A stretch of 64,000 nt of DNA from an uncultured Acidobacteriota bacterium (lineage in GTDB: Bacteria; Acidobacteriota; Terriglobia; Acidiferrales; UBA7541), in contig CAVRFZ010000025.1 of assembly GCA_963720655.1 (NCBI GenBank), positions 24,444 through 88,443 on the forward strand, given 5' to 3'. Positions 21,007 to 58,944 of the stretch are shown here, piece by piece. Position 1 is the stretch's first letter; each line of letters opens with the position of its first letter. The position numbers and the translations under genes are program-made. The notes beneath the pieces were generated by a model that saw only the letters and a list, made by a program, of their open reading frames with translations, had not been told where the DNA came from and made no database searches.

Positions 21007-21007
21007 G

Positions 21008-22857: not shown

Positions 22858-22858
22858 G

Positions 22859-23878: not shown

Positions 23879-23918
23879 GGTGGCAGTACTCTCCTTAGGA
23901 GCGTATCTTTTGTCGGGA

Positions 23919-24210: not shown

Positions 24211-24915
24211 TTACGACGCTTTTGCGTCTTCCTGGGTGTCCATAAGCCGCGCTCGGCCGTGCCGTACCTCAAGACCGCGGACCCAAAACAGGACGTCCTC
24301 CGCAATATTCGTGGCGTGATCGGCGATTCGCTCCAAGTGCCGCGAGGCCAGAACGAAATGAAGGTTCGGCGCGGCGAGCGACGAATCCTTCGTCATTCCT
24401 GCGAGAAGTGCCTCGAAGACCTGATCGCGGTATTGGTCCACGATATCGTCGCTCTCAAGGACTTGTGTTGCCAGATCCACATTTTGGTAGATCAGAGCTC
24501 CAAGGCATTTCGAAACCATGGCGCGAACAGCTGTTGTCATTGGCTCGAGTTCGGAAGGCGTCTCAATCTTACCCATTCCGGCTAGAGAGATAGCGCGCTC
24601 GCTTAAGTTGACGGCCAGGTCACCCATGCGCTCGAGATCGTTATTTATCTTGAGAGTGGCCACGATCAAGCGAACGTCGGTTTCAAGAAGATTCGGCTGC
24701 CGCAACATGCGAATCGCATGTTCATCGATCAGGATCTCCATTTCGTTGATCCGGGGCTCGGTCAGAAACACTTCGCTGGCAAGCCGTTCGTTGCGCTCCA
24801 TCAACGCCCACAGAGCGCGGTTCAGCGAAGACTCCACAGTGCGCGCCTGTGAGATCAAGTAGTTCACCAGCACGTTCTGAAAAATCGCCTCCGAATTGGC
24901 CTTTGTTCCCGCCAC
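24211..24915 (-). CDS. PhoU-family protein (second paralog)
   Basis: Duplicated PhoU repeats (INNDLERMGDLAVNL, ASRHLERIADHATNIAEDV). Confidence 0.85.
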   Translation of the reverse strand: MAGTKANSEAIFQNVLVNYLISQARTVESSLNRALWALMERNERLASEVFLTEPRINEMEILIDEHAIRMLRQPNLLETDVRLIVATLKINNDLERMGDLAVNLSERAISLAGMGKIETPSELEPMTTAVRAMVSKCLGALIYQNVDLATQVLESDDIVDQYRDQVFEALLAGMTKDSSLAAPNLHFVLASRHLERIADHATNIAEDVLFWVRGLEVRHGRARLMDTQEDAKAS

Positions 24916-25050
24916 GTTGCGTTCCTCCCAGGGCCCTATGGGTATGCGCCCAGCCGTATCTTTTTCCAGCCACTACATGATTAGGGGCGGATGTTGCAAG
25001 AGGTTGAATCCGTCGTGAATGTTTCGAGACCGCGGAAGTAGGGGGGCCGG

Positions 25051-26862: not shown

Positions 26863-27547
26863 GGGTCTCGAATAAATACCCGGCGCCGCGAATCGTTTTC
26901 ATATAAGCCGGGTGCTGGGGATCGGCTTCGATTTTTTCCCGCAAGCGCCGTACATACACATCCACGCTGCGCGGCGTAACAAACCGCTCCGTTCCCCACA
27001 CGCCATCCAGTAATTGGTCTCGCGTGAAGACGCGGTTGGGCCGGGCGGCGAGGAAATACAACAGGCGAAATTCCAGCGTGCTCATCGGCACCGGTTTTCC
27101 CGCGCGCGTAACGCGATACGCGGCCGGATCAATCCGCAGAGCTCCGATTTCGAGAGCTTTCTCAGAGGGCGTTCCCGGATCGGCGCGGCGAAGAAGTGCC
27201 TTCACGCGCGCTGCGAGCTCGCGAGGACTGAAAGGCTTCGTGACGTAATCGTCGGCGCCCAATTCGAGGCCCACGACGCGATCCGCCTCTTCACCTTTGG
27301 CGGTCAAAATCAGGATCGGAAGCCGGTTCAAGCTAACGTCCTTGCGAACCTCTTTGCAGATCTCAAGACCCGACAGCTTCGGCAGCATCAGGTCGAGAAT
27401 CAGAAGATCGGGCGGAGTCTTGCGAAGCTGAGCCAAACCGGTGGCCCCATCGCCGGTCGCGCCCACCTGGTATCCATCCTTCTCCAGGTTGTACCGAACC
27501 AGCTCGATAATGTCTTTGTCGTCTTCAACAACCAGAATCCGCTTCAT
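26852..27547 (-). CDS. phoB: OmpR/PhoB-family response regulator
   Basis: The start is at MKRILVVEDD. Receiver Asp in LLILDLMLP, and a winged-helix C-terminus (RVFTRDQLL...VDVYVRRLREKIE...IRGAGY). The symbol is assigned from context. Confidence 0.85.
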   Translation of the reverse strand: MKRILVVEDDKDIIELVRYNLEKDGYQVGATGDGATGLAQLRKTPPDLLILDLMLPKLSGLEICKEVRKDVSLNRLPILILTAKGEEADRVVGLELGADDYVTKPFSPRELAARVKALLRRADPGTPSEKALEIGALRIDPAAYRVTRAGKPVPMSTLEFRLLYFLAARPNRVFTRDQLLDGVWGTERFVTPRSVDVYVRRLREKIEADPQHPAYMKTIRGAGYLFETRAS

Positions 27548-27852
27548 AGTTTTCTCTCTTTGGACGCCCTCAACATACGGGAAACACAGTCCCCGAAGCA
27601 AGCTGACGCTTGTAGCATCTTTTGATTAACGGATTGTTAAGAGCAGTTCCTCGGCTTCTGTTCCATTCTTACTCAGCCAGCTTCAAGAAACATCCTCAAG
27701 CCTTCCCATTTCGGTGCAGTTAGCTGAGACGATTTCGCCGTCCATTCCCCCCTGCAAGATCCTTTCGCGAACGTGGAGAGCCACCCAAATCCCTCGAAGC
27801 AGTGCGATGCCGATTCTCCAACCTGCCGATAAAAGGTGCAGGGGAGGCGTTT

Positions 27853-29100: not shown

Positions 29101-31125
29101 ATGTTGGAGTTCCTAACCAGCCGCGTCAAAGGGCGCTCAACTGGTCTATTCCAAGCCGCGCTCTGCGTGGCGGTTTGCGCGCTCTTCGCATTGCCTGCAA
29201 GGTCACAGCAGAAGCCCACTGATCTTGCGGATTCCAGCCTCGAAGATTTGATGAATGTTCAGGTCACCTCGGTTTCCAAGACGGAGCAGAAGATATCGCA
29301 GGTAGCGGCAGCCATTTTTGTGATTACGCAGGAGGACATTCGACGCTCAGGTGCAACCAATATCCCGGACCTGCTTCGCATGGTGCCGGGGCTCGACGTG
29401 GCGCAGATCAATGGCAACACCTGGGCTATCAGTTCTCGAGGCTTCAACCTTCAGTTCGCGAACAAACTTCTGGTGCTTATCGATGGCCGAGCGGTTTACT
29501 CACCGCTTTTCGGCGGCGTTGACTGGGACACACAGGACGTGCCGCTGGAAGACATCGCACGAATCGAGGTAATTCGCGGTCCGGGAGGAACTGTCTGGGG
29601 CGCCAACGCAGTGAATGGGGTAATCAACATCATTACGAAAAAGGCGGCAGATACTCACGGCGGGATGGTAGTAGCGGGCGGAGGCAACGTCGATCAGGAA
29701 TTCGGTACCGTTCAGTATGGGGGCGCAGCTAAGAACACGGACTACCGAATCTTTGCGAAATATCAGAACTACGATCGTTTTCTGGACTTGAACAACCAGG
29801 ATGGACAGGACGGTTGGCATTTATTGCACGGCGGATTCCGCATGGACTCGAATCTTTCCGCTAAAGACTCTTTGACAACAGAGGGAGATCTGTACAGCGG
29901 AAGCGAAGGGGCGATCATTGTCCATAGCGAATTTAACCCGCCTGACAATGTCAATGTTGCTCGCCTCACCGGGCTCTCGGGCGGAAACATCCTGAGCCGC
30001 TGGCAGCACACTTTTTCGAACGGGTCCGACGCCACCCTGCAGGTCTATTTCGACCGTTACGCGCGCTCGGGACCCGAATCGCGCGAGGATCGCAACACTG
30101 TTGACCTCGAATTTCATCATCACTTTGCGTGGGGCTCGCGGCAGGATTTCATCTGGGGCTTTGGTTATCGTCACACCTCGGATCAGACGGCAGGCACGAT
30201 CGATCAGTCATTTGTTCCCTCGGACTTTGCCGGTGAACTGTTCAATTTCTTCGTTCAAGATCAAATCACCCTAAAACCAGATCGTGTGTTTTTGACGATT
30301 GGAACGAAGCTTGAAAATGAGTATTTCACGGGATTTGATCCAGAGCCCACCGCTCGCGTCGCTTGGACTCCCAGCGGACAGCATACTTTCTGGGCCGCGG
30401 TTTCACGTGCGGCTCGCACCCCCACTCGTCGTGACAGAGGACTCGATGCGGTTCTCGCCGCATTGCCCGGACCGGCCGAGGTTGTGCTGTTGGGCGATCC
30501 GGACTTCCAAGCGGAACATGTTGTAGCTTACGAAGCCGGCTACCGCGCCCAGCCGCTTGCCCGTCTCTCGGTCGACGGGACGATTTTTTACAATAGCTAC
30601 ACTTCTCTTGAAAGTGTCGAGCCACTCCCTGACGTCGTTCAATCCAATCCTCCTCTCCTGATCCATCCGCAAACTTTCGGTAATGGCCTGTACGGTGAGA
30701 CTGAAGGCGTCGAAGTATTTGCGAGTTGGAAGGTGACTAATCGATGGACGCTCAGTCCGGGATATGCCTTTCTGGAAATGCATCTTCACGCCGCTCGGAG
30801 CAGCCAGGACACGACGAGCATTTCTGACATTCAGGGCACAAATCCGGTTCACCAGGCCCAACTTCGGTCTCACGTCGCGATGCTCCATGGTCTTTCCTGG
30901 GATGCTGCCGCGTACTTTGTAGATCGCCTCCCCGATCCGCAGATTGCCGCTTATACCCGCGTGGATACACAACTGAGCTGGCGAATCGCGGAATCCGTGG
31001 ACTTGAGTGTAGTCGGTCAAAACCTGCTCCACGATCATCACGTGGAGTTCAACGATCCACTCCAGAGCGTGAATTCCTCGCAGGTGGCACGCAGTATCTA
31101 CTCCAAATTTACTTGGCGGTTCTAG
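29101..31125 (+). CDS. TonB-dependent outer-membrane receptor
   Basis: Signal peptide, plug-domain motifs (DLMNVQVTSVSK, IEVIRGPGGTVWGANAVNGVINIITK), and a C-terminal aromatic end (SKFTWRF). Confidence 0.85.
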   Translation: MLEFLTSRVKGRSTGLFQAALCVAVCALFALPARSQQKPTDLADSSLEDLMNVQVTSVSKTEQKISQVAAAIFVITQEDIRRSGATNIPDLLRMVPGLDVAQINGNTWAISSRGFNLQFANKLLVLIDGRAVYSPLFGGVDWDTQDVPLEDIARIEVIRGPGGTVWGANAVNGVINIITKKAADTHGGMVVAGGGNVDQEFGTVQYGGAAKNTDYRIFAKYQNYDRFLDLNNQDGQDGWHLLHGGFRMDSNLSAKDSLTTEGDLYSGSEGAIIVHSEFNPPDNVNVARLTGLSGGNILSRWQHTFSNGSDATLQVYFDRYARSGPESREDRNTVDLEFHHHFAWGSRQDFIWGFGYRHTSDQTAGTIDQSFVPSDFAGELFNFFVQDQITLKPDRVFLTIGTKLENEYFTGFDPEPTARVAWTPSGQHTFWAAVSRAARTPTRRDRGLDAVLAALPGPAEVVLLGDPDFQAEHVVAYEAGYRAQPLARLSVDGTIFYNSYTSLESVEPLPDVVQSNPPLLIHPQTFGNGLYGETEGVEVFASWKVTNRWTLSPGYAFLEMHLHAARSSQDTTSISDIQGTNPVHQAQLRSHVAMLHGLSWDAAAYFVDRLPDPQIAAYTRVDTQLSWRIAESVDLSVVGQNLLHDHHVEFNDPLQSVNSSQVARSIYSKFTWRF

Positions 31126-31159
31126 AGAGGAGTGAAAGCGATTTAGGCCGGGACAAACC

Positions 31160-31795
31160 ATGGGACCCTCCTGCCAGCAAGCGAGCGCTGCCGTGCCGCG
31201 CGTCCCCGCGATGTGCATGAGGCTCGTGCTCGCTTTCATCATTCTGATTTCGCATTCGATCGCGGATTCGTCAGCCCTTATTGCTCAAACGAAGACGGCC
31301 ACTGAATATCAGGTGAAAGCCGCGTTCCTCTACAATTTCGCTAAATTTGTTGAGTGGCCGCCATCCGCTTTTAGCGATGCGAAGCAACCGCTCGACATTT
31401 GTGTCTACGGACGCGATCCGTTCGGAAGTGCTCTGGAAGATGCGCTGCTCGGAAAGACGATAGGTGAACGCCGCGTTGGCCTTGGACGGGCCACGCAATT
31501 CCAAGACCTTGCGGGTTGCCAGGTGGTTTTCCTGGGCGCCCCGGCGCGCGAATCCGCGGCGGAGTTGGCCAATCGGCTAAAAGGCCGCGCGGTTCTACTC
31601 GTTGGTGAAAGCGACGGCTTCGCAGCCTCCGGCGGCACGATCCAGTTCACGATCGAAGATAACCGCGTACATTTCGTCATCAATCCAGACGCGGCGGATC
31701 GAGCGGGCCTGAAGATCAGCTCAAAACTTCTGGCCCTGGCCAAAATCGTGCGCGATTCGAATCGGTCGGTTGCCGCCGGGAGCCCACTGCGATGA
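31160..31795 (+). CDS. YfiR-family (DUF4154) periplasmic protein
   Basis: YQVKAAFLYNFAKFVEWP and KISSKLLALAK are hallmark DUF4154 motifs. The start may be at 31208. Confidence 0.8.
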   Translation: MGPSCQQASAAVPRVPAMCMRLVLAFIILISHSIADSSALIAQTKTATEYQVKAAFLYNFAKFVEWPPSAFSDAKQPLDICVYGRDPFGSALEDALLGKTIGERRVGLGRATQFQDLAGCQVVFLGAPARESAAELANRLKGRAVLLVGESDGFAASGGTIQFTIEDNRVHFVINPDAADRAGLKISSKLLALAKIVRDSNRSVAAGSPLR

Positions 31796-34700
31796 TGCCA
31801 TCGAGCAGATATTCGATTCGGCGCAAGATCACGGAACTGGTTCTGGTCACCTGCGCGGTGGCAGTCCTTGTGGCCTGCGGTGTTTTTGCGGTCTACGACA
31901 TCGTGAGCTCCCGAGAGGCGCTCGCGCGCGACCTTATGACTATCGCGCAGATCACCGGATCCAACAGCACCGCCGCTCTTACGTTCGATGACGCTCAATC
32001 CGCCAATGAAATTCTCAGTTCGCTTAGCTCCAAACCACACATCGTCGAGGCGTGCATCTATAGGCGCGACGGAAGCGTTTTTGCCAAGTACAGCAGCGAC
32101 CCCTCCGCGGCGGATTTCTTGCCGCCTCCGGTTTCTCCCGACGGCGTGCGATCAATTAACGAATTCATGGAGGTTTTTCGTGAAATTCGTTTGAAGAACG
32201 AGGTTGTGGGCGCGATTTATGTGAAATCCGACCTTAAGGAGCTCAGCGCCCGCGAGGTTCGTTTCGCCTGGACGATTCTTGGAGTGATCTTACTTTCGTT
32301 CTTGTCCGTATATTTCTCCGCAGCCAAGTTGCAGCGGCTCATTTCCGATCCGATTCTGGATTTGGCCCGTGCCGCCTTCGCCGTTTCTACCGGAAAAGAC
32401 TATTCGCTCCGAGTCAGGAAGTGGAATGACGACGAAATCGGTTTTCTGTTTGACCGTTTCAACGAAATGCTGGGCCAGATTCAGGAACGCGACGTCGCTC
32501 TTCAGCAAGCGCGCGAGAGCCTGGAACTGCGCGTTCACGAACGCACGCTAGACTTGAAAAAAGAGATCGTCCAAAAGACAGCAGCCCAAGAGAAGCTTCA
32601 GCGCTCTCTCAGGGAGTTGGAAGATCTCAAATTTGCCCTTGACCAGCATGCCATCGTCGCCCGAACCGACGAGCGCGGAATTATCACCTTTGCCAACGAC
32701 AAGTTCTGCTCCGTTTCCCAATACAGCCGCGAAGAGCTGATCGGACAGGACCATCGGATTCTGAACTCCCGCTATCACAGCAAGGAATTCTTCGCCGGAT
32801 TGTGGGAAACGATCAAATCGGGAGAGGTGTGGAAAGGAGAAGTCAAGAATCGCGCGAAGGACGGGAGCTTTTACTGGGTTGACTCCACAATCGTTCCCTT
32901 CTGTGACGGCATCGGCAAGCCCAAGCAGTTCATCGTAATTCGCATGGACATCACAGGGCTCAAACAAATTGAAGAAGAATTGCGAGCCGCCAAGGACGTT
33001 GCCGAAGGCGCGAGCCGCGCGAAGAGCGAGTTCCTGGCCAACATGAGTCACGAAATTCGCACGCCAATGAACGGAATCATCGGCATGACCGAGCTGGCGC
33101 TCGATACGCAGTTGACCATCGAACAACGCGAATACCTCAACATGGTCAAGACCTCCGGCGTCTCGTTGTTGACACTCATCAACGACATCCTCGATTTCTC
33201 CAAGATCGAGGCGGGAAAACTAGACCTAGACGTGAGCGATTTTCCCCTGCGGCAAAGCGTCGGCGAGACCTTAAAGGCTCTCGGTTTCCGCGCGCATCAG
33301 AAGGGCCTCGAACTTGCGTGGCGCGTGGCGGAGAACGTGCCGGACCATCTGGCGGGGGACGCCAGTCGCGTGCGGCAGGTGCTTGTAAATCTGGTTGGAA
33401 ACGCAGTGAAGTTCACCGAAAAAGGAGAAATAGTCGTCGAAATCGAGCGGGATCCTAAGTCAACTGAGCAGACGATCCTTCTTCATTTCTGCGTGCGCGA
33501 TACGGGCATCGGAATTGCGAAAGAGAAACAGGACATGATCTTCGGGGCATTTACCCAAGCCGATAGCTCCACGACGAGAAGGTATGGCGGGACCGGACTC
33601 GGATTGGCGATTACAAGACGCCTCATAGATCTGATGGGCGGGAAACTGTGGCTGGAGAGCGAGCCAGGCGTGGGCAGCGCATTCCATTTTACGATTCAAT
33701 TCCAGCGAGCATCGGCCCAACCAGTTTCTGATTATCCGGATCCCCAAATCCTGTCGCACGCCTCGATTCTCGTCGTCGATGACAACGAGACAAATCGCAT
33801 CATCCTGGTTGAGATGCTCGGACGATGGGGGATGCAGATCGTGACCGCGAAAGATGCCAGAGAGGCCCTCGAAATCCTTGTACGCAGTGGAAACCGAGCC
33901 CCTCCTTCTCCGCAGTCATCTCAGATTTGCAGATGCCGGATATGGACGGATTCGAACTCGTAGAAAACATCCGCAAGAGTGTTCAGTTCGGTCAAATTCC
34001 GGTGCTCCTGCTGAGTTCGAGTGTGCAGCAAGGTGAGCACGAACGGTGCCGGCAACTGGGGATTTCAGCGTATTTGGCCAAGCCAATTCAGCCGTCGGAG
34101 CTTCTCAATGCGATTTTGAGCGCGCTGTCGCTGCATGCCAGTGAGCCGAGCCAGACGCAGGAAATGACGCAGGACAAGCCGCAGGAAGTGTTGCCACAAA
34201 GCGACCGGAGGCAAGGAATGAAAGTCTTACTTGCGGAAGATAACGCGGTCAATCGCACGCTCGCCACTCGCCTGCTTCAGAAACACGGCCACACCGTCGT
34301 TGTGGTCGAAAACGGACGCGAAGCTCTGGAAGCGCTCGAACGCGAAACCGTGGATCTGGTGTTGATGGACGTGCAGATGCCGGAGATGGACGGCCTGGAA
34401 GCCACGGCAGCGATTCGCGAAAAAGAGAAAAAGACGGGCCATCACTTGCCCATCATCGCGCTCACCGCGCACGCAATGAAAGGAGACCGCGAGAAGTGCC
34501 TGGCCGCCGGCACGGACGATTACCTGACCAAGCCGATTCGCACGGCGGATCTCTTTGCAGTTGTCGAGCGCTTGAGAAACGCAAAAACAAATACCACTTC
34601 CGAAGCACCCGCCATCACCAAAGCGCCGGCGACAAATGGTTTTGACAGCGATGCAGCGCTCAGGCACGTGGAGGGCGATCGCGACTTGCTCGATGAAATC

Positions 34701-34979
34701 ATCCGAATTTTTGCGGATCAATTCCCGAAAACACTGTACGAAATTCAGAATGCCATTCGCGCCGCCGACCTTCCTGCTCTCGAGCGAGCCGCCCATTCCC
34801 TGAAAGGCTCAGCGTCCAACCTTTTCGCGACCGGCGTGACTCAGGCTGCCGCAAAACTGGAAGAATCCGCGCGCTCCGGCGACTCTTCACGCTCTCGCGA
34901 ACAGTTTCAGGCGCTTGAAAGCGAAGTGGAAAAACTTCTGCGCGAACTCGAAGCTCTCTCGCGAAAGGTGGCCAGTTGA
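31792..34979 (+). pseudogene. hybrid sensor kinase (CHASE8-like sensor, HAMP, PAS, HisKA, HATPase, REC, REC, HPt) with an apparent -1 frame break inside the first REC
   Basis: ORF 31792-33963 ends in ILVVDDNETNRIIL...LVRSGNRAPPSP. The REC domain continues in ORF 33825-34979 as FSAVISDLQMPDMDGFEL. The break lies near the CCCC run at 33900-33905 and may be a sequencing error. Confidence 0.8.
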
Positions 34980-37135
34980 CATCGCTCTCGATTTTCGCGA
35001 GGAAGTCGCCTTCGGATTGGTTCCGCGGGAAATCCCCGGCCTCTTTCAGCGAGGCGATCCAGTATCGTCTGGTGATTGCGCTCGGATTCACCGTCCTTTA
35101 CGTAGCGTTGGATCACTCCGTCGTTTTTTTTCAGATATGGGAGGGAATCAGCGCCTGGTACCCTCCCGCCGGACTTGCCCTGGCGCTTCTCGTAGGACTT
35201 GATCTTGCTTACGCACCGCTTCTGTTGATCGCGGGGATGATCGCGGCAGGCGTCAACTATCCTCTGTCAGCGTTTTCGGTGGGATTTTGGGTTGTCAACT
35301 TCGTCGTCGCGATCGGATACACGTGCGCTGCTTACATGTTGCGCCGTCTCCGCGTTAACATCGCTTTCCGTTCTCTCCGCGATGTGAATCTGTTTGTGAT
35401 GGTGGCATTGGCAGCTTCATTTTGTGTCGCGGCTGCGGGCTCGGCAGCCTTCGTTTGGGCTGGAACGCTGCGACAAGCCGATTATCCCAAAGCGGTATTG
35501 AATTGGTGGATTGGCGATGCAGTTGCGCTGATTTGTCTCACGCCGTTTCTGCTCGTTCATGTCACTCCCTGGCTGCGCCGACGAGCTTTCCCCAAAGATT
35601 CGGTACTTTCACAACCTGATTCACCGCCATCCATCCGAGCGGTGAGCGGTTCTCCGGTCACCCGCACAATTGAAAGTTGCGCCCAAGGCGCCAGCATCCT
35701 TCTTTCCTTGTGGTTTGTGTTTGGCTGGAACCTGCTGAAGAGCTATGACCTTTTCTATCTTTTCTTTTTGCCAATTCTTTGGATTGCGGTTCGCCGCGGA
35801 TTGCGAGGAGCCACCAGCGCAGTGGTGCTGCTCAATTCCAGTGCGATGCTGATGCTTCGCATCTATTCGTCGGACTCGCAGCGGCTGACGCTCTTGCAGA
35901 TTTTGATGTTGATCGTCTCGCTCACCGGACTCTCGATCGGAACGGTGATCTCCGAGCGTGAGCTCGCCGAGCAGGAATCGAGGGAAGGTGAGGCGCGGCT
36001 CGAGGCTCTCGTGAAGTCCATTGATGAACTGGTGTTTGAATTTGATGCCGATAATAAATACAAGAACGTCTGGACGAACGACGAAACACTTCTTTTGCGG
36101 CCTAAAGGTGATTTGATTGGACGAAAGGTTACCGCGTTTCTCGATGAAGAGAGCACGCGCCCATTTCCTCCGATTTTTCAGCGGGTGCTGCGTACCGGCC
36201 GGGGCGAGAGTGTTGAATATCGCATACCCTTTCCTTCCGGGGAGCGCTGGTTCTTGGGCCGGGTTACTGCGATTCCGACGGCGGGAGGCGTGCCTAAAAC
36301 GGTTTGCATGACGGCGCGCGACATCACCGGCCTCAAACGAGCCGAACAAGATTTGCGCAGCGCCCGCGATGCCGCCGAAGCAGCGAGCCGCGCGAAGAGC
36401 GAATTCGTCGCCAATATGAGCCACGAAATACGCACTCCCATGAACGGGATTATCGGGATGACCGAACTGGCCCTTGATACCGAATTGACCGCCGATCAGC
36501 GCGAATATATGGAGCTTGTGAAGCTTTCTGCCGATTCATTATTGGCGCTTCTGAACGATATTCTCGATTTCTCCAAAATCGAAGCCGGAAAGATGGACTT
36601 GGACCCGCTGGAGTTCGCGGTGCAGGAGAATCTGGACGAAGCCTTGAAACTGATGCGATTTCGAGCCCGGCAGAAAGCCCTCGTGTTCGAATGGCGGATC
36701 GCGTCCGACGTCCCGCCGGTATTGATTGGCGACCCCGTAAGGTTGCGACAGGTACTGATCAATCTGGTGGGGAACGCGATCAAGTTTACAGAGCGCGGGG
36801 GCATCGATGTGGACGTCGCTTGCGGTCATCGCGAGGGTCAAAGTCTCGAGGTGGTATTCCGGGTGCGCGACACGGGGATTGGAATTCCCTCCGAAAAGCA
36901 GGCTCTGATTTTTGACGCCTTCACGCAAGCGGATAGTTCCACAACGCGAAGGTTCGGCGGCACCGGTCTCGGCCTCGCGATATCAAGCAGCCTCATCAAG
37001 TTGATGGGAGGCCAGATCTCGGTGGAAAGCGAGCCCGGAAAGGGCAGCACCTTTATGTTTACAGCGAAATTTGGACTACCGGCTGCCGAGTACTTGAATG
37101 CGATCCAGCCAAACCATCCAGAGAGGGTACGATGA
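34976..37135 (+). CDS. membrane sensor histidine kinase (MASE1-like TM domain, PAS, HisKA, HATPase)
   Basis: About 300 aa of polytopic N-terminus, then PAS, H-box [15 protein letters not shown], and [10 protein letters not shown]. The start overlaps the upstream stop by 4 nt. Confidence 0.8.
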
Positions 37136-38100
37136 TGATGGACCAAAAAGAAAACAAAGAGCGCATCCTCATTGCCGAGGATGATCCTGTTTCGCGACGC
37201 GTGCTCGAGACCCTGCTCAAAAAATGGGGCCACGAAATCGTGGTCGCAAACGATGGTCTGGAAGCAGTGCGCCTGCTGGAGAGCCGGGAGGCTCCGCGAC
37301 TCGCCGTTCTGGACTGGATGATGCCTGGCTTGGAGGGCGTTCAGGTCTGCCAGCGAATTCGCCAGGACACTACGCGACCGTATATGTACCTGCTGCTGCT
37401 CACCGCGCGCAGCCAAAAGGATGATCTCGTGCGCGGACTGGAGTCCGGCGCCGACGACTATCTGACCAAGCCCTTCGACGCACAGGAATTGCGAGCGCGC
37501 CTGCACGTCGGGAAGCGAATTTTAGAATTGCAGGACAATTTGATCGCTGCCCGCGAAAAGCTGCTCTACCAGGCCACTCACGACGCGCTCACGGGAATTT
37601 CCAATCGCGGAGTGAGTCTGGACGCGCTTCGCCGTGAGCGCTCTCGCCAAACCCGAGAAAGCGGTTTCTTCGCGATCGCGCTGCTCGACATCGATCATTT
37701 CAAATACGTCAACGACACATACGGCCACCTCGCCGGGGACGCGGTACTTACCGAGGCGGCTCAGCGAATCAAGAGCTGCATTCGGCCCTACGACACTTTA
37801 GGACGTTATGGAGGTGAGGAATTCCTGATTGTCCTTCCTACAGCCGATGGGCCCGGAGCTGCGTGTGTCGCCGAGAGAATCCGCGCAGCATTTGAATCGC
37901 AGCCAATCGTCACCGAGCGTGACAAGATCGCGATTACCGTAAGCCTCGGAATCGCCGCGAGTGGAGGACAGAACTCCTTCGATGCGGAATCGCTCTTGCA
38001 GAGGGCAGACGAAGCGCTCTATCGCGCGAAGCAGATGGGACGCAATCGTGTGGAAGTCGCAGTCCCATCGATAGAGGATGAGGGCGTGACCTCAGCCTAG
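37132..38100 (+). CDS. response regulator - GGDEF diguanylate cyclase
   Basis: Receiver ([25 protein letters not shown]) followed by a GGDEF domain with the active-site RYGGEEF. Confidence 0.9.
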
Positions 38101-50928: not shown

Positions 50929-51948
50929 GTGAAAAATAGTTCGCACCCTCGCGTCCGCCCAGTTCGCATCGTGGCACTCGGCGGCGGCACCGGACTCTCC
51001 ACAGTCCTGCGCGGACTCAAGCAGCACATCGGCGATCCCAAACGCGGGATCGAGCGGCCCATCTCGGATCTCGCCGCGGTCGTCACCGTCACCGACGACG
51101 GCGGAAGTTCTGGCCGTCTTCGCCGCGATTATCGCGTCCTCCCGCCGGGCGACATTCGCAATTGCATGGTCGCGCTTTCAAAAGACGAGGACCTCCTCGG
51201 CAAATTATTTCAATACCGCTTTTCCGCCGGCCGAGGCCTCGCCGGCCACAGCTTCGGCAATTTATTTCTCACCGCCCTCACCAATATCACCGGCGATTTC
51301 CCGGAAGCAGTGCACGTTTCCTCGCAGGTGCTCGCAATTCGCGGACGCATCTTTCCTTCGACGACCGAGAACGTCACCCTCGAAGCCGAGCTCGAAGATG
51401 GTTCCCTCGTGGCCGGCGAAACAAGAATTTCCCGCTCGAAGCAGCGAATCCGCCGCATTCGTCTCGTCCCGCGCCGCGTTCGTCCGCTCTCCGAAGTGCT
51501 CGCCGCGCTTCACTCCGCAGACTTGATTCTCGTCGGCCCCGGCTCGCTCTACACCAGCATCATTCCCAATCTCCTGGTCGAGGGCGTCACAAAAGCGATC
51601 GCCCGCTCGAGCGCCAAATGCGTTTACATCGCCAACCTCATGACGCAACCTGGCGAGACCGAGCACTACTCCGTCGCCGATCACGTCCGCGCCATCTACG
51701 AACACACCCGCGTTCCCATATTCCACTCGGCGGTGATCAATCGCACTCCGGCCTCCCCGCAAATGTTGCGCCGCTATCGCAAACAAGGCGCCGAGATTGT
51801 GAAGCCTTCGCTCACTGAACTGAAGCGGATGCGTTTGCCCTATATCACCTCCGATCTTCTGCAACAGCGCGGCAAGATCCGCCACGATACCAGCCGCCTC
51901 GCTAAACTCCTCCTGCGCGAATTCGTCACGCAGCATCCCCGCCACTGA
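50929..51948 (+). CDS. YvcK/CofD-family gluconeogenesis-morphology factor
   Basis: IVALGGGTGLSTVLRGLK, VVTVTDDGGSSGRLR, PPGDIRNCMVAL, GPGSLYTSIIPNLLV. Confidence 0.85.
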   Translation: MKNSSHPRVRPVRIVALGGGTGLSTVLRGLKQHIGDPKRGIERPISDLAAVVTVTDDGGSSGRLRRDYRVLPPGDIRNCMVALSKDEDLLGKLFQYRFSAGRGLAGHSFGNLFLTALTNITGDFPEAVHVSSQVLAIRGRIFPSTTENVTLEAELEDGSLVAGETRISRSKQRIRRIRLVPRRVRPLSEVLAALHSADLILVGPGSLYTSIIPNLLVEGVTKAIARSSAKCVYIANLMTQPGETEHYSVADHVRAIYEHTRVPIFHSAVINRTPASPQMLRRYRKQGAEIVKPSLTELKRMRLPYITSDLLQQRGKIRHDTSRLAKLLLREFVTQHPRH

Positions 51949-52134: not shown

Positions 52135-53403
52135 ATGTCTGCGGCTGCGCAGGATGAATTAAACGTTTATCAGTCTGCGGAAGCGCGCTTCGAAATCGCT
52201 GCGCATAAGCTGAATTTGGAAGATGGCCTCTACCGCTATCTGAAATATCCCAGCAAGGAAATCACGGTTTACATTCCAGTTCCGCTCGACAACGGCAAGC
52301 TCGAAGTCTTCACCGGCTATCGCGTGCTGCACTCCACGATTCGGGGTCCCGGTAAAGGCGGCATCCGCTTCGACCCAAACGTCAGCCTCGATGAAGTCCG
52401 CGCCCTCGCCGCTTGGATGACTTGGAAATGCGCGGTCGTCAATATTCCTTTCGGTGGCGCGAAGGGCGGCGTGATCTGCGATCCGAGCAAACTCTCAAAA
52501 ACCGAAATCGAGCGCATCACCCGCCGCTATACCGCCGAGCTGAGCGAATGGTTCGGGCCCGAGCGCGATGTTCCCGCGCCGGACATCGGCACCAACGCGC
52601 AAACCATGGCCTGGGTGATGGACACCTACGCCATGCACGTCCGTCAGGCTACCACCGCCGTCGTCACCGGCAAGCCGCTTGAACTCGGCGGCTCACAAGG
52701 CCGCACCGAGGCTACCGGCCGTGGCTTAATGATTTGCTGCGACAAAGCCATTCAGAAACTCGGAATGCAGCGCCGCGGCGCTCGCGTCATCATTCAGGGC
52801 TTTGGCAACGTCGGCTCCCAGGCCGCCGACCTGATGCACAAGGCGGGCTACAAGATCATCGGCGTTGCGGACATACACGGCGGTCTTTACAACGAAGGCG
52901 GCTTCGACATCCCGAAACTAGTCGAATGGGTCTACGGCCAGCGCAAACCACTTCCTGATTTCCCGGGTGGCGGCGAGAAAATGAGCGCGCAGGAAGTGCT
53001 TTTCCACCCCTGCGAGATTCTCGTTCCCGCGGCCACCGAAAATCAGATCACCACGAAAAATGCTCACCGCGTGGATTGCAAAATCCTGTGCGAGGGCGCC
53101 AACGGCCCCACCACGTCGCACGCCGACCCGATCATCGAGAAAAAGGGAATCTTTATCATCCCGGACATTCTCGGCAATGCCGGCGGCGTCACCGTCAGCT
53201 ATTTCGAGTGGGTGCAGGATCGCCAGGGCTTTTTCTGGCGCGAGAGCGAAGTGAATGAACGCCTGCAGGACGTGATGGAACAAAGTTTCGATCAAGTTGT
53301 GCTTTACGCCGAAACCCACGGGGTGAATAATCGTATCGCTGCATACATTGTGGCGATCGATCGCGTGGCCCGCGCACTGAAATTGCGCGGCATCTACGCA
53401 TAG
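52135..53403 (+). CDS. gdhA: Glu/Leu/Phe/Val-family dehydrogenase, glutamate dehydrogenase type
   Basis: GPGKGGIRF, catalytic-Lys region PFGGAKGG, Rossmann [10 protein letters not shown]-terminal SYFEWVQ. Confidence 0.9.
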
Positions 53404-53416
53404 CGACAGCCGCACA

Positions 53417-53440
53417 GTAGGGGCACGGCATGCCGTGCCC
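53417..53440 (+). repeat. REP-like element: GTAG(G) head + palindrome GGCACGGCATGCCGTGCC
   Basis: Perfect 18-20 nt palindrome 14 nt after the gdh stop. A near-identical inverted copy lies at 58921-58944. Confidence 0.6.
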
Positions 53441-53509
53441 GATCGACCGGTGGGAAGAAGCTGCCCATCGTCATCTTGAATGTAAGCGTCGTTCGCGACG
53501 GAGGCAATT

Positions 53510-54313
53510 CTGTACCCTGAAGCCATTTCGCCGGGCGCTCTAAAAACCGAGGACGAACACCGCCGCGACATTTGCGCCGTCGGCCGCTGGATTCACGATC
53601 GCGGCTACGTTGCCTCCACCGACGGCAACATCTCGCTCCGCCTCGACCCTCGCCGCATTCTCACTTCTCCCACCGGCATCAGCAAAGGCATGATGACGCC
53701 CGACGATCTCGTCGTCACCGATCTTCAAGGTCACAAGCTGAGCGGCCGCCGCAACGCCAGTTCCGAACTCGGCATGCATCTCCTGATTTACAGCCGCCGG
53801 CCCGACATCAATGCCGTTTGCCATGCGCACCCGCCTGCTGCCACTGGCTATGCGGCTGCCGGCATTCCGCTTAACAAAGCTATCCTTTGCGAACTCGTTC
53901 TCTCCCTCGGCTGCATTCCGGTCGCGCGCTACGGCACTCCCGGAACCAGCGAACTCACCGAAGCTCTCGAACCGCTCGTCCAAAGCTACGAAGCAATCTT
54001 GATGGCCAATCACGGCGTGGTCTGCTACGGGCAGGATCTCCTCTCCGCTTTTTTCCGCATGGAGACCACCGAACACTTCGCTCGCGTCTCCCTCGTAACC
54101 GAATTAATCGGCAAACAAGTCTTGCTTTCCAGCGGAGATGTGGAAAAATTGCTCGCGGCGCGCGCCCGTTACGGCGTTCAAACAGCTTCGTCAATCGGCC
54201 CAGACTGTCCAGTCACGGCAGACGCCGCCGATTCCGAGCGAATCACGCTGACGCGTCGCGAACTCGAAGCGCTCGTGGATGAAGCCGTACAGAAAGAGCG
54301 CTCGCGCCGCTAG
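53510..54313 (+). CDS. class II (zinc) aldolase/adducin-family protein, fuculose/rhamnulose-1-P aldolase-like, with C-terminal amphipathic extension
   Basis: DGNISLRL, TPTGISKG, AVCHAHPP, MANHGVV. The frame is open upstream of the ORF-track Met. The only plausible start is CTG at 53510, 5 nt after GGAGG (no in-frame ATG/GTG/TTG), so the start is uncertain. Confidence 0.75.
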   Translation: MYPEAISPGALKTEDEHRRDICAVGRWIHDRGYVASTDGNISLRLDPRRILTSPTGISKGMMTPDDLVVTDLQGHKLSGRRNASSELGMHLLIYSRRPDINAVCHAHPPAATGYAAAGIPLNKAILCELVLSLGCIPVARYGTPGTSELTEALEPLVQSYEAILMANHGVVCYGQDLLSAFFRMETTEHFARVSLVTELIGKQVLLSSGDVEKLLAARARYGVQTASSIGPDCPVTADAADSERITLTRRELEALVDEAVQKERSRR

Positions 54314-54348
54314 CGCAACAGGCCGTGTTCGAATTTTCGAAAAGCTTT

Positions 54349-54372
54349 GTAGGCCGCGGTTTTAACCGCGGC
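54349..54372 (+). repeat. REP-like element: GTAGG head + palindrome GCCGCGGTTTTAACCGCGGC
   Basis: Perfect palindrome 36 nt after the aldolase stop. Confidence 0.55.
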
Positions 54373-54390
54373 AATTGCCAAACCAGAAAA

Positions 54391-54419
54391 AAGGGGCTTT
54401 AGCCCCTGAAGTACATCAG
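54391..54419 (+). repeat. hairpin element AAGGGGCTTTAGCCCCTGAAGTACATCAG (copy 1)
   Basis: AGGGGCT/AGCCCCT stem. A second copy lies at 54945-54976, so the BMC-H gene is flanked by direct copies. Confidence 0.55.
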
Positions 54420-54475
54420 GCCTGTTTCAGACGGACACCAGACAACGTTCAGAAGTGGTTGCCGGAGGATCCAGA

Positions 54476-54772
54476 ATGGGCGAAGCACTCGGTATGATCG
54501 AAACGCGCGGCATGGTTGCGATGATCGAGGCCTCAGACGCGATGGTAAAAGCGGCCAAGGTCACGCTCGTCGGTTGGGAGAAGATCGGTTCCGGCTACGT
54601 CACCGCGATGGTCCGCGGCGATGTGGCTGCCGTGAAAGCGGCCACCGACGCCGGCGCCGCCGCTGCGCGCCGCGTGGGCGAATTGATCGCCGTCCACGTC
54701 ATCCCGCGGCCGCATCAATCGCTCGAGGATGTGTTGCCCATCGGCAAGACCCCGATGGTAGCCGCCAAGTAG
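54476..54772 (+). CDS. bacterial microcompartment shell protein, BMC-H (Pfam BMC/PduA-CcmK type)
   Basis: ATG after a [34 protein letters not shown]...[20 protein letters not shown] is the canonical BMC-H fold signature. Confidence 0.9.
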
Positions 54773-54886
54773 CCGTCGGCAAAGCGCCGAGGCTCGGCGC
54801 ACCAGCGCGCAACTGTCACCGGTCGTCGTCGGATGTCATGGTCTGGTCGTTGTCGAAGAATTGGTTTGGTTGGTTTCCGGTCGGAG

Positions 54887-54976
54887 CCCCCTGCTTTAGC
54901 AGGGGGAGCTGGACTTCAGTCCAGCGGAAAAAGCGCCCAAGAACAAGGGGCTTTAGCCCCGGGAAGTACGATTCAG
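54887..54976 (+). repeat. array of three stem-loops in the BMC-H / BMC-P spacer
   Basis: CCCCCTGC-TTTA-GCAGGGGG (54887-54906), GCTGGACT-TC-AGTCCAGC (54908-54925), and AAGGGGCTTTAGCCCCGGGAAGTACGATTCAG (54945-54976, copy 2). Confidence 0.55.
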
Positions 54977-55126
54977 AAATGATCACAAACTCGAACCCGA
55001 TTGCGCCGCAAATTCACGCCTGTCGCCAGTTTCGCAGCTCAGGCGAGCGGAATTGACCTGAGGCCTTTGACGCAAGCTGAAAGCCTGATCGGGACGTAAA
55101 AAGCTTTATCAGAACAAATCAATCTC

Positions 55127-55431
55127 ATGCTTCTCGCTCGCATCGTCGGCACCGTCGTTTCCACTCGCAAAGACCCGCGCCTCGAAGGCAAAAAGCTGCT
55201 CATCGTAAAGCCCATCAATCCCGAAGGCGGCGACGAATCCGGCTACTTGATCGCCTTGATACCGTTGACGCCGGCTTCCGCGAAACCGTCCTCGTCGTCT
55301 CCGGCAGCTCCGCCCGCCTGGCCGCCGAATGCAAGGACCGCCCCGTCGACGCCGCCATCATCGGCATCGTCGACACGATCCAGCTAGACGCCCACCACGA
55401 AGCCGAACTCGCCGCCGCCCGAAAGAAATGA
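55127..55431 (+). pseudogene. BMC-P (EutN/CcmL-type pentamer) shell protein 1 with an apparent 1-nt deletion near 55258
   Basis: MLLARIVGTVVSTRKDPRLEGKKLLIV...GYLIAL, then the -1 frame reads DTVDAGFRETVLVVSGSSARLAAECKDRPVDAAIIGIVDTI. The uncorrected frame gives low-complexity P/S/A sequence. Confidence 0.75.
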
Positions 55432-55461
55432 CCCAACACCCGCTTACAGTAGGGCAGAAGC

Positions 55462-55746
55462 ATGATTCTCGGCCGCGTCATCGGCAAAGTCGTCGCTACC
55501 ATGAAAAACGACACACTCATCGGCCAACGCCTGCTCATCGTGCAGCCAATCGACCGTCACGGCCGCGATAAAGGTAAAGCGATTGTCGCGCTCGATTCGG
55601 TAGGCGCCGGAGCGGGTGAAACCGTTTACTGGTGCCGAGGAAAAGAAGCCAGCTTTCCATTTCTTCCGGTCGAGGTTCCCACGGAAGCAACAATCGTAGG
55701 AATCGTCGACGAAATCAACGTCCCCACAGAATCCGGGAATTCCTGA
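55462..55746 (+). CDS. BMC-P (EutN/CcmL-type) shell protein 2
   Basis: MILGRVIGKVVATMKND...LLIVQP...VALDSVGAGAGETV...ATIVGIVDEI. Confidence 0.85.
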   Translation: MILGRVIGKVVATMKNDTLIGQRLLIVQPIDRHGRDKGKAIVALDSVGAGAGETVYWCRGKEASFPFLPVEVPTEATIVGIVDEINVPTESGNS

Positions 55747-56028
55747 ATGCTGATCGCGCGCGTCGTCGGTGACATAGTCGCCACTCAAAAAGATCCGTCG
55801 CACCACGCCCGAAAAATCCTGCTCGTGCAGCCGCTGAATCTCGACGGCTCCGATCGCGGCGAAGCTGTTGTCGCCCTCGATGCCGTGGATGCCGGAATCG
55901 GTGAGCGCGTGCTGCTTTCCGCCGAAGGCTTTTGCGCGATGACCGCCGTCGGCCGCCCCAACTCCCCCATCGACACCGCCGTAATCGGCATAATCGACGA
56001 AGTAACGCTGATCGAAAACATAAAGTAA
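55747..56028 (+). CDS. BMC-P (EutN/CcmL-type) shell protein 3
   Basis: MLIARVVGDIVATQKD...ILLVQP...VALDAVDAGIGERVLL...DTAVIGIIDEV. It starts immediately after the stop of paralog 2. Confidence 0.85.
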   Translation: MLIARVVGDIVATQKDPSHHARKILLVQPLNLDGSDRGEAVVALDAVDAGIGERVLLSAEGFCAMTAVGRPNSPIDTAVIGIIDEVTLIENIK

Positions 56029-56037
56029 CGGATCCCA

Positions 56038-56060
56038 GTAGGAGCGGGTCTCAGACCCGC
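56038..56060 (+). repeat. REP-like element: GTAGG head + palindrome GCGGGTCT-C-AGACCCGC
   Basis: It lies 10 nt after the BMC-P3 stop. Confidence 0.5.
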
Positions 56061-56223
56061 CCGCGCAGCCCACTCCACCACCGCGCCACCCACATCCGAT
56101 CTTGCCTGTCCTCTGACGATCGCAAAACCAAGTTCACGCAAACGCCACAATCGCGGCGCAAGTCCGAAATGGCGAGGCGCTTGTTCTGAGCCTGTTATTT
56201 GATTGCTTTGAAACAACTCACCC

Positions 56224-56259
56224 AAAAAAAAGGCAGCGCTCGCTGCATCGAGCGCTGCC
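56224..56259 (-). terminator. rho-independent terminator of the 56300-56680 gene
   Basis: GGCAGCGCTCG-CTGCA-(T)CGAGCGCTGCC stem followed on the minus strand by T8. Confidence 0.7.
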
Positions 56260-56299
56260 CATTCCGCGACCACCAACAAATCCCAGCTGCGTCAGATCG

Positions 56300-56680
56300 T
56301 TACTTTCCCGCTACCGTGCCACTCGTCACCGAAATGTATTTGGCCTTGCCGCCAAAATGAACCTCGGCGATTTGGTTGCTATCCAGCACGACGGAGGTGT
56401 ACGAAGCCTTGCTCTGCCCGTCTTTCCACTCGATCGGTGCTTCCGCCACCACTTTTCCATCGCGTGAGATCGTCATTTTCGTTTCATCTGCCGACACTTG
56501 ATACGTTCCGGGCTTGAGATCTTTGCCGGCCAGCGTCGCGGAGCTATGTAGATCGACGGCAATATGAGAAACCGGCTTGACTGTTTTTGAATCGTCGGCG
56601 CGAGCTGCGATTGGAATCGCCAGAGCAAGCGCCGCCAGGATTGTCACCACAAAATTCATTCGACGATGTTCCATTTTCAT
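56300..56680 (-). CDS. small secreted hypothetical protein
   Basis: Signal peptide (NFVVTILAALALAIPIAARA), then a beta-rich 95-aa domain. No family recognised. Confidence 0.55.
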   Translation of the reverse strand: MKMEHRRMNFVVTILAALALAIPIAARADDSKTVKPVSHIAVDLHSSATLAGKDLKPGTYQVSADETKMTISRDGKVVAEAPIEWKDGQSKASYTSVVLDSNQIAEVHFGGKAKYISVTSGTVAGK

Positions 56681-57105
56681 TTCTCCTTGTTCTCACTCGC
56701 CCCTTGCAATGCTTAGACGCGATGATTCCTGCACCGAGAGCGCCATTTCAAAAGATTCATAAAAAAAGCCTTGCAGCAATCGTTACAACTAAATCACTCC
56801 GTATGCGGACACCATGCGTGCGAAAGCGAACAGCTTGCTCGGGCCAGCGAGTAAAAATGGGTAAAAAATCAACACTCTCCGAATTTTCGGAGAAATGCCA
56901 AACGCTGCAAAATGCGTTTTCGCTGCGCTCTTCTTGTATACGGAGCGCTGCGGCGATTAGTTCCGGCGTAATAGAAAATTAACAATATTTATCAAGATTC
57001 GGATTTGTGTTGCTGATTAGGTTGCACCCTTTTGGTGCATACGCCTTTTCTGGCCTGCGGGGCCCAGATTGACACCCTGACCACGCTCAGGAATAATCGC
57101 TCGAC

Positions 57106-57732
57106 ATGATCGGTTCGCTTCGCGGCAAGCTCATTGAGAAACGGCCTAACCAGCTCCTCGTTGACGTGAATGGCGTGGGCTATCAGGTGCAGATTCCGCT
57201 CTCCACGTTCGCGAGCCTCGCTGCGCTCCACGCCGAAACGAACCTGTTGATTCACACGCACGTACGCGAAGACCAGCTCACGCTGTACGGCTTTGCAACG
57301 GCACGCGAAAAGCAGTGTTTTGAGCTGCTGATTTCCGCGTCTGGCGTGGGGCCTTCGCTTGCGTTGAAGATTTTGTCCGGGATGAGCATCGAAGAGCTGG
57401 TTCCCGCAATCCGCAAAAGCGATCTCGCGCAGCTCGTTAAAATTCCGGGCGTTGGCCGCAAGACCGCCGAACGAATCGTCGTCGAACTGCGCGACAAGCT
57501 CGTCGTGATTGACGTTCCGGAGGCGGGCAAGCCGAGCACGCGCTCTCAGCTCGAGGACGACGTGGCGTCTGCTCTTATGAATCTTGGTTACGATGCGAAG
57601 TCTGTCGAACGTGCCGTTGAAAAATCGCGCGCGGCAAGCGGCAACGATTTCGAAAAATTGCTGCGTTCATCGCTCCAGATTCTCGGCAGCTCCGCCATGC
57701 AAAAATCGGCCCGCGCAGGTCGCGACGAATGA
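57106..57732 (+). CDS. ruvA: Holliday junction branch migration complex subunit RuvA
   Basis: MIGSLRGKL...[10 protein letters not shown]...FGF...ERQ-like [17 protein letters not shown], and HhH motif [16 protein letters not shown]. Confidence 0.95.
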
Positions 57733-58758
57733 CCGACAATCGCAGCCGGATCATCTCCGGTAAAGCGCTCGAGGAAGACGCGCGCATTGACGCAACCGTG
57801 CGTCCGCAGAAAATCGAGGACTTCATCGGCCAGTCGCGCGTAAAAGAAAATCTGAAAATCGCCGTGGACGCCGCGCGCAATCGCGGCGACGCGCTCGATC
57901 ACGTCCTGCTCTACGGCCCGCCCGGCCTGGGCAAGACCACGCTCGCGCAAATTCTCGCCAATGAAATGGGCTCAGCCATCAAAATCAGCTCCGGCCCGCT
58001 GCTGGAAAAAAAGGGCGACCTCACCGCCGTGCTCACATCGCTCGACGCGCGCGATTTTTTCTTTCTCGACGAAATTCACCGCCTGCAGCCGGCGCTCGAA
58101 GAAATTCTCTATCCCGCGATGGAGGATTTCCGCATTGACCTGATCATCGGCCAGGGCCCCGGCGCGCGCGTTCATCCGTATCAGCTGAACCGCTTCACGC
58201 TGATCGGCGCCACCACGCGCGCGGGCCTGATCATGGCGCCGCTGCGCTCGCGTTTCGGCATCGTTCATCGCCTGGAATTTTATTCGCCGGAAGATTTGCA
58301 GCGCATCGTGCGAGCGCTCCGCAAAAATTCTCGGCATCACGATGGACCGCGAAGGCGCCGCCGAAATCGCGCGCCGCAGCCGCGGCACTCCGCGCGTCGC
58401 GAATCGTTTGCTGCGCCGCGTGCGCGATTTCGCCGAAGTGCGCGCCAAAGGCCACATCACGCTCGGCGTTGCGCGCGACGCGCTAGCAATGCTCGGCGTC
58501 GACGAGCACGGCCTCGACGAAGTGGACCGGAACCTGATGCTGACTATTATTCAGAAATATTCAGGCGGCCCCGTCGGCCTGAATACGATTGCCGCGTCGC
58601 TCAGCGAGGAAGAAGACGCCATCGAAGAAATCTACGAGCCTTACTTGATGCAACTCGGGCTGCTTGACCGCACGCCGCGCGGCCGCGTGGCGACGGCGCT
58701 GGCTTACAAGCATTTCGGCTTTGATGAGCCGCGCCGCCAGCCTGCGCTTTTCAGCTAG
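57729..58758 (+). pseudogene. ruvB: Holliday junction DNA helicase RuvB with an apparent 1-nt insertion near 58314
   Basis: [31 protein letters not shown], ...QRIVR, then the +1 frame reads [42 protein letters not shown]. Most likely a sequencing or assembly error. Confidence 0.9.
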
Positions 58759-58920: not shown

Positions 58921-58944
58921 GGGCACGGCATGCCGTGACCCCAC
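58921..58944 (-). repeat. REP-like element, inverted copy (minus strand GTGGGGTCACGGCATGCCGTGCCC)
   Basis: It has the same GCACGGCATGCCGTG core as 53417-53440, in the ruvB / LssY-like spacer. Confidence 0.55.

Follow-up and report, generated by a model that had tools for sequence, protein, structure and literature searches.

Which kind of organelle is encoded by a locus that holds a shell and one enzyme, and little else? The question is raised by a stretch of 64,000 nucleotides from an uncultured Acidobacteriota bacterium (contig CAVRFZ010000025.1; the whole stretch is called the window in this study), in which positions 53510-56028 of the plus strand carry a compact bacterial microcompartment (BMC) cassette made of a class II aldolase gene, one BMC-H gene and three paralogous BMC-P genes. 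The preliminary description of this DNA had compared the cassette with the fucose/rhamnose microcompartment loci of Planctomycetes and Verrucomicrobia (PVM), and had proposed that it is either a satellite shell locus serving a main locus elsewhere or an unusually minimal, aldolase-centred compartment. The analysis reported here indicates that the cassette is very probably the main locus of an ACI-type microcompartment, in a bare form that is found in Terriglobia.

The first gene of the cassette (53510-54313) encodes a 267-aa class II aldolase, metal-dependent and FucA-like (PF00596, E = 1.4e-47). It is followed by the gene of a 98-aa, EutM/PduA-like BMC-H hexamer (54476-54772; PF00936, E = 6.6e-30) and by three pentamer genes: BMC-P1, of 101 aa once its reading frame is repaired (55127-55431; full-length PF03319 match, E = 3.4e-29), BMC-P2, of 94 aa (55462-55746; PF03319, E = 6.1e-27) and BMC-P3, of 93 aa (55747-56028; PF03319, E = 1.3e-24), the start codon of P3 abutting the stop codon of P2. 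All five genes lie on the plus strand and all five products gave full-length Pfam matches, in agreement with the gene content first described. A tblastn search of the 64 kb detected neither an additional BMC-H or BMC-P nor an acylating aldehyde dehydrogenase (AldDh). Pfam scans, which covered essentially all open reading frames (ORFs) of at least 200 aa and several smaller ones, revealed no phosphotransacylase, acetate kinase, 2-hydroxyacid dehydrogenase, DeoR regulator or BMC-T among the window ORFs scanned. The absence of core enzymes and of extra shell genes, initially noted for at least 5 kb on each side, therefore holds over 53 kb upstream and 8 kb downstream of the cassette.

The ACI type was catalogued by Sutter, Melnicki, Schulz, Woyke and Kerfeld (2021, Nat Commun 12:3809) from 125 loci, all in Acidobacteria. 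In this catalog the type is defined by a pfam00596 aldolase that bears an encapsulation peptide (EP) at its C-terminus, by one or more standard BMC-H and by three BMC-P genes side by side (a triplet of the green, grey and orange clades). The main locus also holds a hydroxyacid dehydrogenase (pfam00389/02826) and proteins of unknown function, including one of ~80 aa with an N-terminal EP and three cysteines (Sutter et al. 2021). The AldDh (pfam00171, with an EP near its C-terminus) is described as lying consistently on a satellite locus in the main text of that study, and in "most genomes" elsewhere in the catalog. We found no experimental study of the ACI organelle in the literature.

The cassette resembles the ACI type in its host, its EP-tailed pfam00596 aldolase, its single basal BMC-H, its ordered BMC-P triplet and the lack of an AldDh within the locus. 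The host belongs to the order Ca. Acidiferrales of the class Terriglobia, in Acidobacteriota: the Acidobacteriota metagenome-assembled genome (MAG) MFD00125.bin.2.36 encodes an identical BMC-H (100%), and Ca. Acidiferrales and Ca. Acidoferrum MAGs encode BMC-H proteins 98-99% identical to that of the window, these MAGs being the best genome matches. The aldolase combines the PF00596 match with a C-terminal motif conserved in 66 loci, as detailed below. The BMC-H carries the interface motifs KAAK (KAAx in ACI) and PRPH, read directly from the sequence, together with a GSG pore; it scores 149 bits against the NCBIfam EutM model, above the cutoff of 133, and shares 85-98% identity with its counterparts in full ACI loci. 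The three adjacent PF03319 genes have positional orthologues in full ACI loci, clade colours not being assigned. Finally, no AldDh was found in the window or within 10 kb of any sampled acidobacterial cassette, which is consistent with a satellite AldDh; as the ACI AldDh sits on a satellite locus, its absence here is normal for the locus, and the aldehyde-processing enzymes would be expected elsewhere in the genome.

By comparison, PVM loci, which are associated with fucose and rhamnose, carry AldDh, phosphotransacylase, acetate kinase, a lactate/malate-dehydrogenase-like enzyme and a DeoR regulator within the locus, whereas none of these was found in the 64 kb, and the host is an acidobacterium. 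What stands of the PVM-like reading is an aldolase-signature BMC locus with a pentamer triplet; the enzymes, the regulator and the phylum do not fit. The association is explained, and in historical terms partly justified, by the earlier literature, since Axen 2014 filed two loci of Ca. Solibacter usitatus as PVM-like, whereas Sutter 2021 files the genome of that species as ACI.

To place the cassette among its relatives, loci were sampled through a genome scan with the BMC-H, with one genome per species, and the best 80 were taken (loci of relatives bear labels such as L001 or L004). Gene orders were read from tblastn, as ORF clustering was too noisy, antisense ORFs in this GC-rich DNA having displaced the small pentamer genes. 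The order aldolase-H-P1-P2-P3 was found in about 60 acidobacterial loci of the best 80, each pentamer best matching its positional counterpart; in about 55 loci, P2 and P3 have orthologues at the corresponding positions. At least 12 metagenome contigs, 90-97% identical in nucleotide sequence, show this gene order together with the flanks, and a closed 5.43-Mb Acidiferrales contig (L093; ERZ25039491 contig_27579) shows gdh-aldolase-H-P-P-P-ruvA-ruvB, with 11 nt between gdh and the aldolase gene. The ruvAB genes follow the cassette even where RuvA is only 47-49% identical, and in L018 and L064 the cassette lies near glmS/glmU/uvrD-like genes.

The sampled loci come in two forms. The full locus, of Vicinamibacteria type, comprises genes for a TPR protein, a YHS-like 82-aa protein, the aldolase, the BMC-H, the three pentamers, a 72-aa protein that has an EP at its N-terminus and cysteines at its C-terminus (EP-Cys protein), and a 2-hydroxyacid dehydrogenase. 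All the sampled Terriglobia loci (~26 species: Acidiferrales, Bryobacterales, the peat MAG SbA4 and others) are the bare five-gene cassette; the 2-hydroxyacid dehydrogenase is present in 17-20 Vicinamibacteria-type loci and in none of the Terriglobia type. Another Terriglobia sequence with the bare cassette is OZ253554.1, of 5.54 Mb. The window differs from the Vicinamibacteria-type loci in the same way, having no 2-hydroxyacid dehydrogenase, 72-aa EP-Cys, YHS-like 82-aa or TPR protein, and differs from the catalogued ACI loci in its Terriglobia/Acidiferrales host, in the position of the cassette between gdh and ruvAB and in the CTG start of its aldolase. However, the catalog assigns Ca. Solibacter Ellin6076, SbA3 and SbA4 to ACI and records BMC-T satellites for them (Sutter 2021), and the locus of SbA4 (L017) is a bare cassette; the bare form is thus already inside the published ACI type, though not described separately. 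An unusually minimal compartment need not be invoked, as the same bare cassette is present in all ~26 sampled Terriglobia species.

Two further observations were made in this sample. In L029 (Acidobacteriota MAG MFD06229.bin.2.89, ~9000-10600) the BMC-H gene is flanked by TPR, YHS-like and EP-Cys genes, with no aldolase or pentamer genes nearby, which looks like a split ACI locus. L028, L052 and L071 are ACI cassettes in MAGs binned as Verrucomicrobiia or Acidimicrobiia, with BMC-H proteins 88-96% identical to that of the window; mis-binning or contamination seems more likely than transfer.

Several points weigh against the assignment to ACI. The type was reported primarily from subdivisions 4 and 6, not from Terriglobia (Sutter 2021). 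No homologue of the ACI hydroxyacid dehydrogenase is present in the window by tblastn and Pfam, neither the window nor the Terriglobia loci gave a match to the ACI proteins of unknown function, EP-Cys included, and tblastn with the accessory genes of the full locus L046 (TPR of 202 aa, YHS-like of 82 aa, EP-Cys of 72 aa, and the dehydrogenase) found none of them in the window. Satellites of this genome with AldDh, BMC-T or PduS/T are putative. At the protein level, no NCBIfam equivalog model reaches its cutoff for the aldolase, so that its substrate is not assignable; translation of a cargo enzyme would be expected to initiate only weakly from its CTG start codon; and BMC-P1 is broken as given, its literal ORF (55127-55387) ending in a nonsense tail. 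The aldolase and the shell genes are considered in turn below.

A predicted link between the aldolase and the shell is the aldolase C-terminus. By alignment with PDB structures the aldolase fold ends near residue 224, and the tail lies outside the fold. This tail (54182-54298, plus strand) consists of a variable linker (residues 225-243) and an EP helix (residues ~244-263, RITLTRRELEALVDEAVQKE). The last ~22 residues could be aligned gap-free in 51 unique tails from 66 loci, giving the motif xEIRLTYRELtALIEDAVrxL, while the full-length aldolases of these loci are 40-100% identical. The linker ahead of the motif is rich in P, A and G and varies between loci from ~20 to 70 residues. The hydrophobic moment of the EP segment, 0.51, is among the highest in the aldolase. 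The AlphaFold2 (AF2) model places a terminal helix at residues 249-266, with pLDDT <50 there; based on a shallow alignment (25 homologues, 77-99% identity) and with a mean pLDDT of 42, this model is poor and counts for little. A conserved amphipathic C-terminal peptide behind a variable linker is what would be expected of an EP, and we consider the aldolase tail as a predicted EP.

A hidden Markov model (HMM) of the motif matched the aldolase as the sole ORF of the window (E = 1.4e-7). The same HMM weakly matches the N-terminal ELRALVREAVAR of the small Cys protein in full ACI loci. This small Cys-rich protein (L046, 11134-11352; also in L029, L034, L042 and L055) begins with ELRALVREAVAR, a motif as in the C-terminal peptide of the aldolase (ELEALVDEAVQK). 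The resemblance suggests that a single targeting motif stands at opposite ends of two cargo proteins, one motif serving several cargo proteins.

Upstream of its tail, the aldolase shares its fold and motifs with E. coli FucA and other L-fuculose-1-phosphate aldolases (PDB 1fua, 6btd, 4c24). Among solved structures it comes closest to L-fuculose-phosphate aldolases (6btd, E = 7e-28), with which its SSE, HxH and NHG motifs align; in FucA these are the metal- and phosphate-binding residues. In contrast to FucA-type aldolases, however, the window protein carries the extra tail of ~43 residues with the EP and falls far below the equivalog cutoffs: it scored 118 against the FucA model NF005302 (cutoff 264) and 74.5 against TIGR01086 (cutoff 400), and 118.6 against the 3-oxo-tetronate-4-phosphate decarboxylase model (cutoff 250), level with the FucA score.

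The aldolase gene has no in-frame ATG, GTG or TTG before position 53690. The start coordinate given previously, 53510, corresponds to a CTG codon (53510-53512) that is invariant in eight genus-level sequences, and the L022 aldolase likewise has CTG at the start position. An ATG aligns exactly with this CTG in L019, L020 and L021 and in many database homologues. As the CTG is invariant in the genus and aligned to ATG in distant relatives, the aldolase very likely starts at a conserved non-canonical CTG, judging from these alignments. L001-L003, L008, L010 and L011 have an ATG four codons upstream of the CTG position, where the window has ACG (53498-53512 region).

The four shell genes supply both shell domains, with one basal hexamer for the facets and three pentamer paralogues for the vertices. 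The pentamers are 36-44% identical in pairwise comparisons and are, from their sequences, ancient paralogues. GRM2 shells are reportedly made of hexamers and pentamers only, with no BMC-T. A pT=4 shell of GRM2 has been solved (Kalnins 2020, PMC6971018). As shells of BMC-H and BMC-P are known to close in GRM2, the four shell genes would be sufficient in principle. Within the cassette, BMC-H and BMC-P1 are separated by 354 nt, and P1 and P2 by 30 nt. In L001-L003, L011, L013 and L019 a 160-aa PF05635 gene (23S rRNA intervening-sequence protein, a four-helix bundle) is inserted between the first and second pentamer genes; it is absent in the window.

Selection on the cassette was assessed by counting codon differences against L004 (~91% nucleotide identity across the aligned region). 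We counted 51 synonymous and no nonsynonymous differences in the aldolase, 11 and 0 in BMC-H, 7 and 1 in the repaired P1, 20 and 0 in P2, and 14 and 1 in P3, compared with 81 and 5 in gdh and 39 and 3 in ruvA. These counts argue that strong purifying selection acts on all five cassette genes, no less tightly than on gdh and ruvA, and that they are functional by evolutionary criteria.

How might such a compartment work? The aldolase would be packed into the shell through its C-terminal EP. Once inside, it would most likely cleave a ketose-1-phosphate of the L-fuculose-1-phosphate or L-rhamnulose-1-phosphate kind into dihydroxyacetone phosphate (DHAP) and an aldehyde. The aldehyde would then be consumed inside the shell by an EP-tagged acylating AldDh encoded at a distant satellite locus, as the catalog of Sutter 2021 leads us to propose. 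A protein-database search with the EP-bearing acylating AldDh of a non-acidobacterial locus (cluster c20) gave at least 120 matches; the best 120, those listed, were all close HO/SPU-like relatives at 56% identity or more, and none was informative on the AldDh of this genome.

This scheme can be challenged by giving more weight to the bare form itself. The bare cassette might be a distinct, Terriglobia-wide subtype, inherited vertically beside gdh and ruvAB, with no regulator and with a CTG-started aldolase, which works either without an encapsulated AldDh or with a partner set other than that of the Vicinamibacteria ACI loci. We consider this unlikely, while giving it some weight; if true, it would be the simplest natural metabolosome known. 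In a stricter version, which we regard as improbable, the five genes are the whole organelle in Terriglobia, with no encapsulated AldDh or dehydrogenase partner, and the aldolase-only shell would serve, for example, to control a reversible condensation or to sequester a reactive aldehyde for export. No second ORF with the EP motif occurs in the 64 kb, as this version would have it, and in the ~26 Terriglobia loci the 10 kb on each side of the cassette hold no partner enzyme; but an absence over 10 or 64 kb is uninformative for a genome of ~5 Mb. The cassette also lies amid housekeeping genes (gdh and ruvAB, or the glmS/glmU/uvrD-like genes of L018 and L064), with no regulator or transporter nearby. 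To our knowledge, however, there is no precedent among metabolosomes for producing an aldehyde inside the shell without an enzyme that consumes it. As to the catalog, it places the AldDh satellite in most genomes and not in all, but its main text has the ACI AldDh consistently on a satellite, and the catalogued Terriglobia genomes (Ellin6076, SbA3, SbA4) do have further BMC satellites.

Conversely, the cassette might be only a satellite module that complements a complete, canonical BMC locus in another part of the genome, like the aldolase and BMC-P satellites of HO type I, MIC3 and MUF2. In such modules, which do occur, a pfam00596 aldolase stands beside members of the BMC-P triplet, and the MUF2 aldolases also have C-terminal EPs; the ACI aldolase is closest to the HO/MIC3 aldolases (Sutter 2021), and that of the window is 34-44% identical to the aldolases of the HO/MIC-like loci compared. 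However, the HO type I, MIC3 and MUF2 modules are without a basal BMC-H, or stand alongside a main locus with AldDh and BMC-T, whereas the window module includes a BMC-H, and no other shell locus was detected for the lineage. No genome occurs twice among the best 80 genome matches to BMC-H, and the locus holds the only basal BMC-H seen for this lineage. Moreover, Axen 2014 defined a satellite BMC locus as one with only PF00936 or only PF03319, in a genome with a non-satellite BMC locus elsewhere. Both domains are present here, and the satellite option offered by the preliminary description fails this definition. Since both shell domains and the signature enzyme are present, we read the cassette as the main locus and the missing enzymes as its satellites, and the converse arrangement as very improbable.

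The damage to BMC-P1 bears on whether the locus is intact. Compared with all six aligned relatives, one G is missing after position 55255 (GCC-TTGAT in the window, GCCGTCGAC or GCCGTTGAC in the relatives), which puts the gene out of frame after codon 43; the relatives all encode an intact 101-aa P1. In the window the housekeeping gene ruvB has a similar defect, a single extra G near 58309 relative to L005 that splits the gene into two frames, and related assemblies each show frameshifts of their own in CofD, gdh, ruvA or P3. Among species-level genomes, the nearest is a MAG of the Microflora Danica project, where deep Nanopore sequencing was used. Because of these indels, the Nanopore origin of the closest MAG and the codons beyond the P1 indel, which are still conserved in the repaired frame (the 7:1 ratio given above), we take the P1 frameshift as a likely long-read error, and probably an error of the assembly. 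The idea of a decaying remnant undergoing pseudogenisation, to which the 1-nt deletion in P1, the aldolase without ATG, GTG or TTG start and the palindromic elements inserted in the spacers might point, deserves almost no credence, given the sequencing context just described, a P1 that is intact in every relative, purifying selection at least as tight as on gdh and ruvA also downstream of the indel, and a conserved CTG that is matched by ATG at the aligned position in relatives. Further indel errors may underlie the overlapping ORF pairs 4479-5441/5087-6469 and 31792-33963/33825-34979.

The flanks of the cassette are as first stated: CofD/YvcK (50929-51948) and gdh (52135-53403) upstream, and a hypothetical gene (56300-56680), ruvA (57106-57732) and ruvB (57729-58758) downstream. 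Two neighbours were considered as possible members of the system and rejected. The gdh gene, adjacent in many relatives, encodes an ordinary 422-aa Gdh without EP-like extension, and its proximity was put down to synteny only. The gene of the 126-aa hypothetical protein runs on the opposite strand and is missing from L093 and L020; its product gave no family match, and the N-terminus resembles a signal peptide. No kinase, isomerase, transporter or regulator was found near the cassette, the neighbours being housekeeping genes kept over long evolutionary distances. By Pfam, the other ORFs of the window are transport, signalling, phosphate-uptake, citrate synthase, Mla and similar genes. They include an ordinary pstSCAB-phoU-phoR-phoB phosphate-uptake cluster at 20167-27601 and, at 29101-38100, a dense array of histidine kinases, response regulators, a GGDEF protein and a YfiR-like protein, both unconnected to the cassette.

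The intergenic regions of the cassette contain a hairpin repeat (AAGGGGCTTTAGCCCC), which occurs just twice in the 64 kb, once on each side of BMC-H, where 0.02 copies would be expected by chance. Copy 1 (GGGGCTTTAGCCCC core; 54383-54415, plus strand) ends 60 nt ahead of the BMC-H gene and belongs to an 83-nt insertion that is absent from some strains, and copy 2 (54937-54970, plus strand) lies in the spacer between BMC-H and BMC-P1. In relatives (L001-L013) the motif is likewise found only beside BMC-H. The repeats are embedded among other small palindromes, and insertion or absence of palindromic elements varies the aldolase-H spacer from 79 to 560 nt and the H-P1 spacer from 104 to 362 nt across strains. 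The hairpin repeats are terminator-like on the minus strand only; they may play a part in differential expression of the hexamer. Rfam models gave nothing over 53300-57200 beyond one chance snoRNA match (E = 0.5), and a promoter and terminator scan gave no signal above background. A perfect 20-nt palindrome, GGGCACGGCATGCCGTGCCC, is located at 53421-53440, just past the gdh stop codon, with a one-mismatch copy at 58921-58940, just past ruvB; it recurs in intergenic spacers of related contigs and is thus REP-like.

Taken together, these results make the locus a further member of a catalogued, experimentally uncharacterised type; it is no new category and no anomaly. Acidobacteria are among the most abundant soil bacteria, and the ACI organelle is itself abundant in soils. 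An identical BMC-H protein is recorded in 550 blocks of the metagenome collection. The locus also carries a caution for annotation, as one that seems incomplete by the PDU/EUT/PVM paradigm can be normal for its own type. The EP sequence motif could be used genome-wide to find the missing cargo, and the reduced Terriglobia form, in which four shell genes accompany a single tagged enzyme, is an attractive minimal system for co-expression and substrate discovery.

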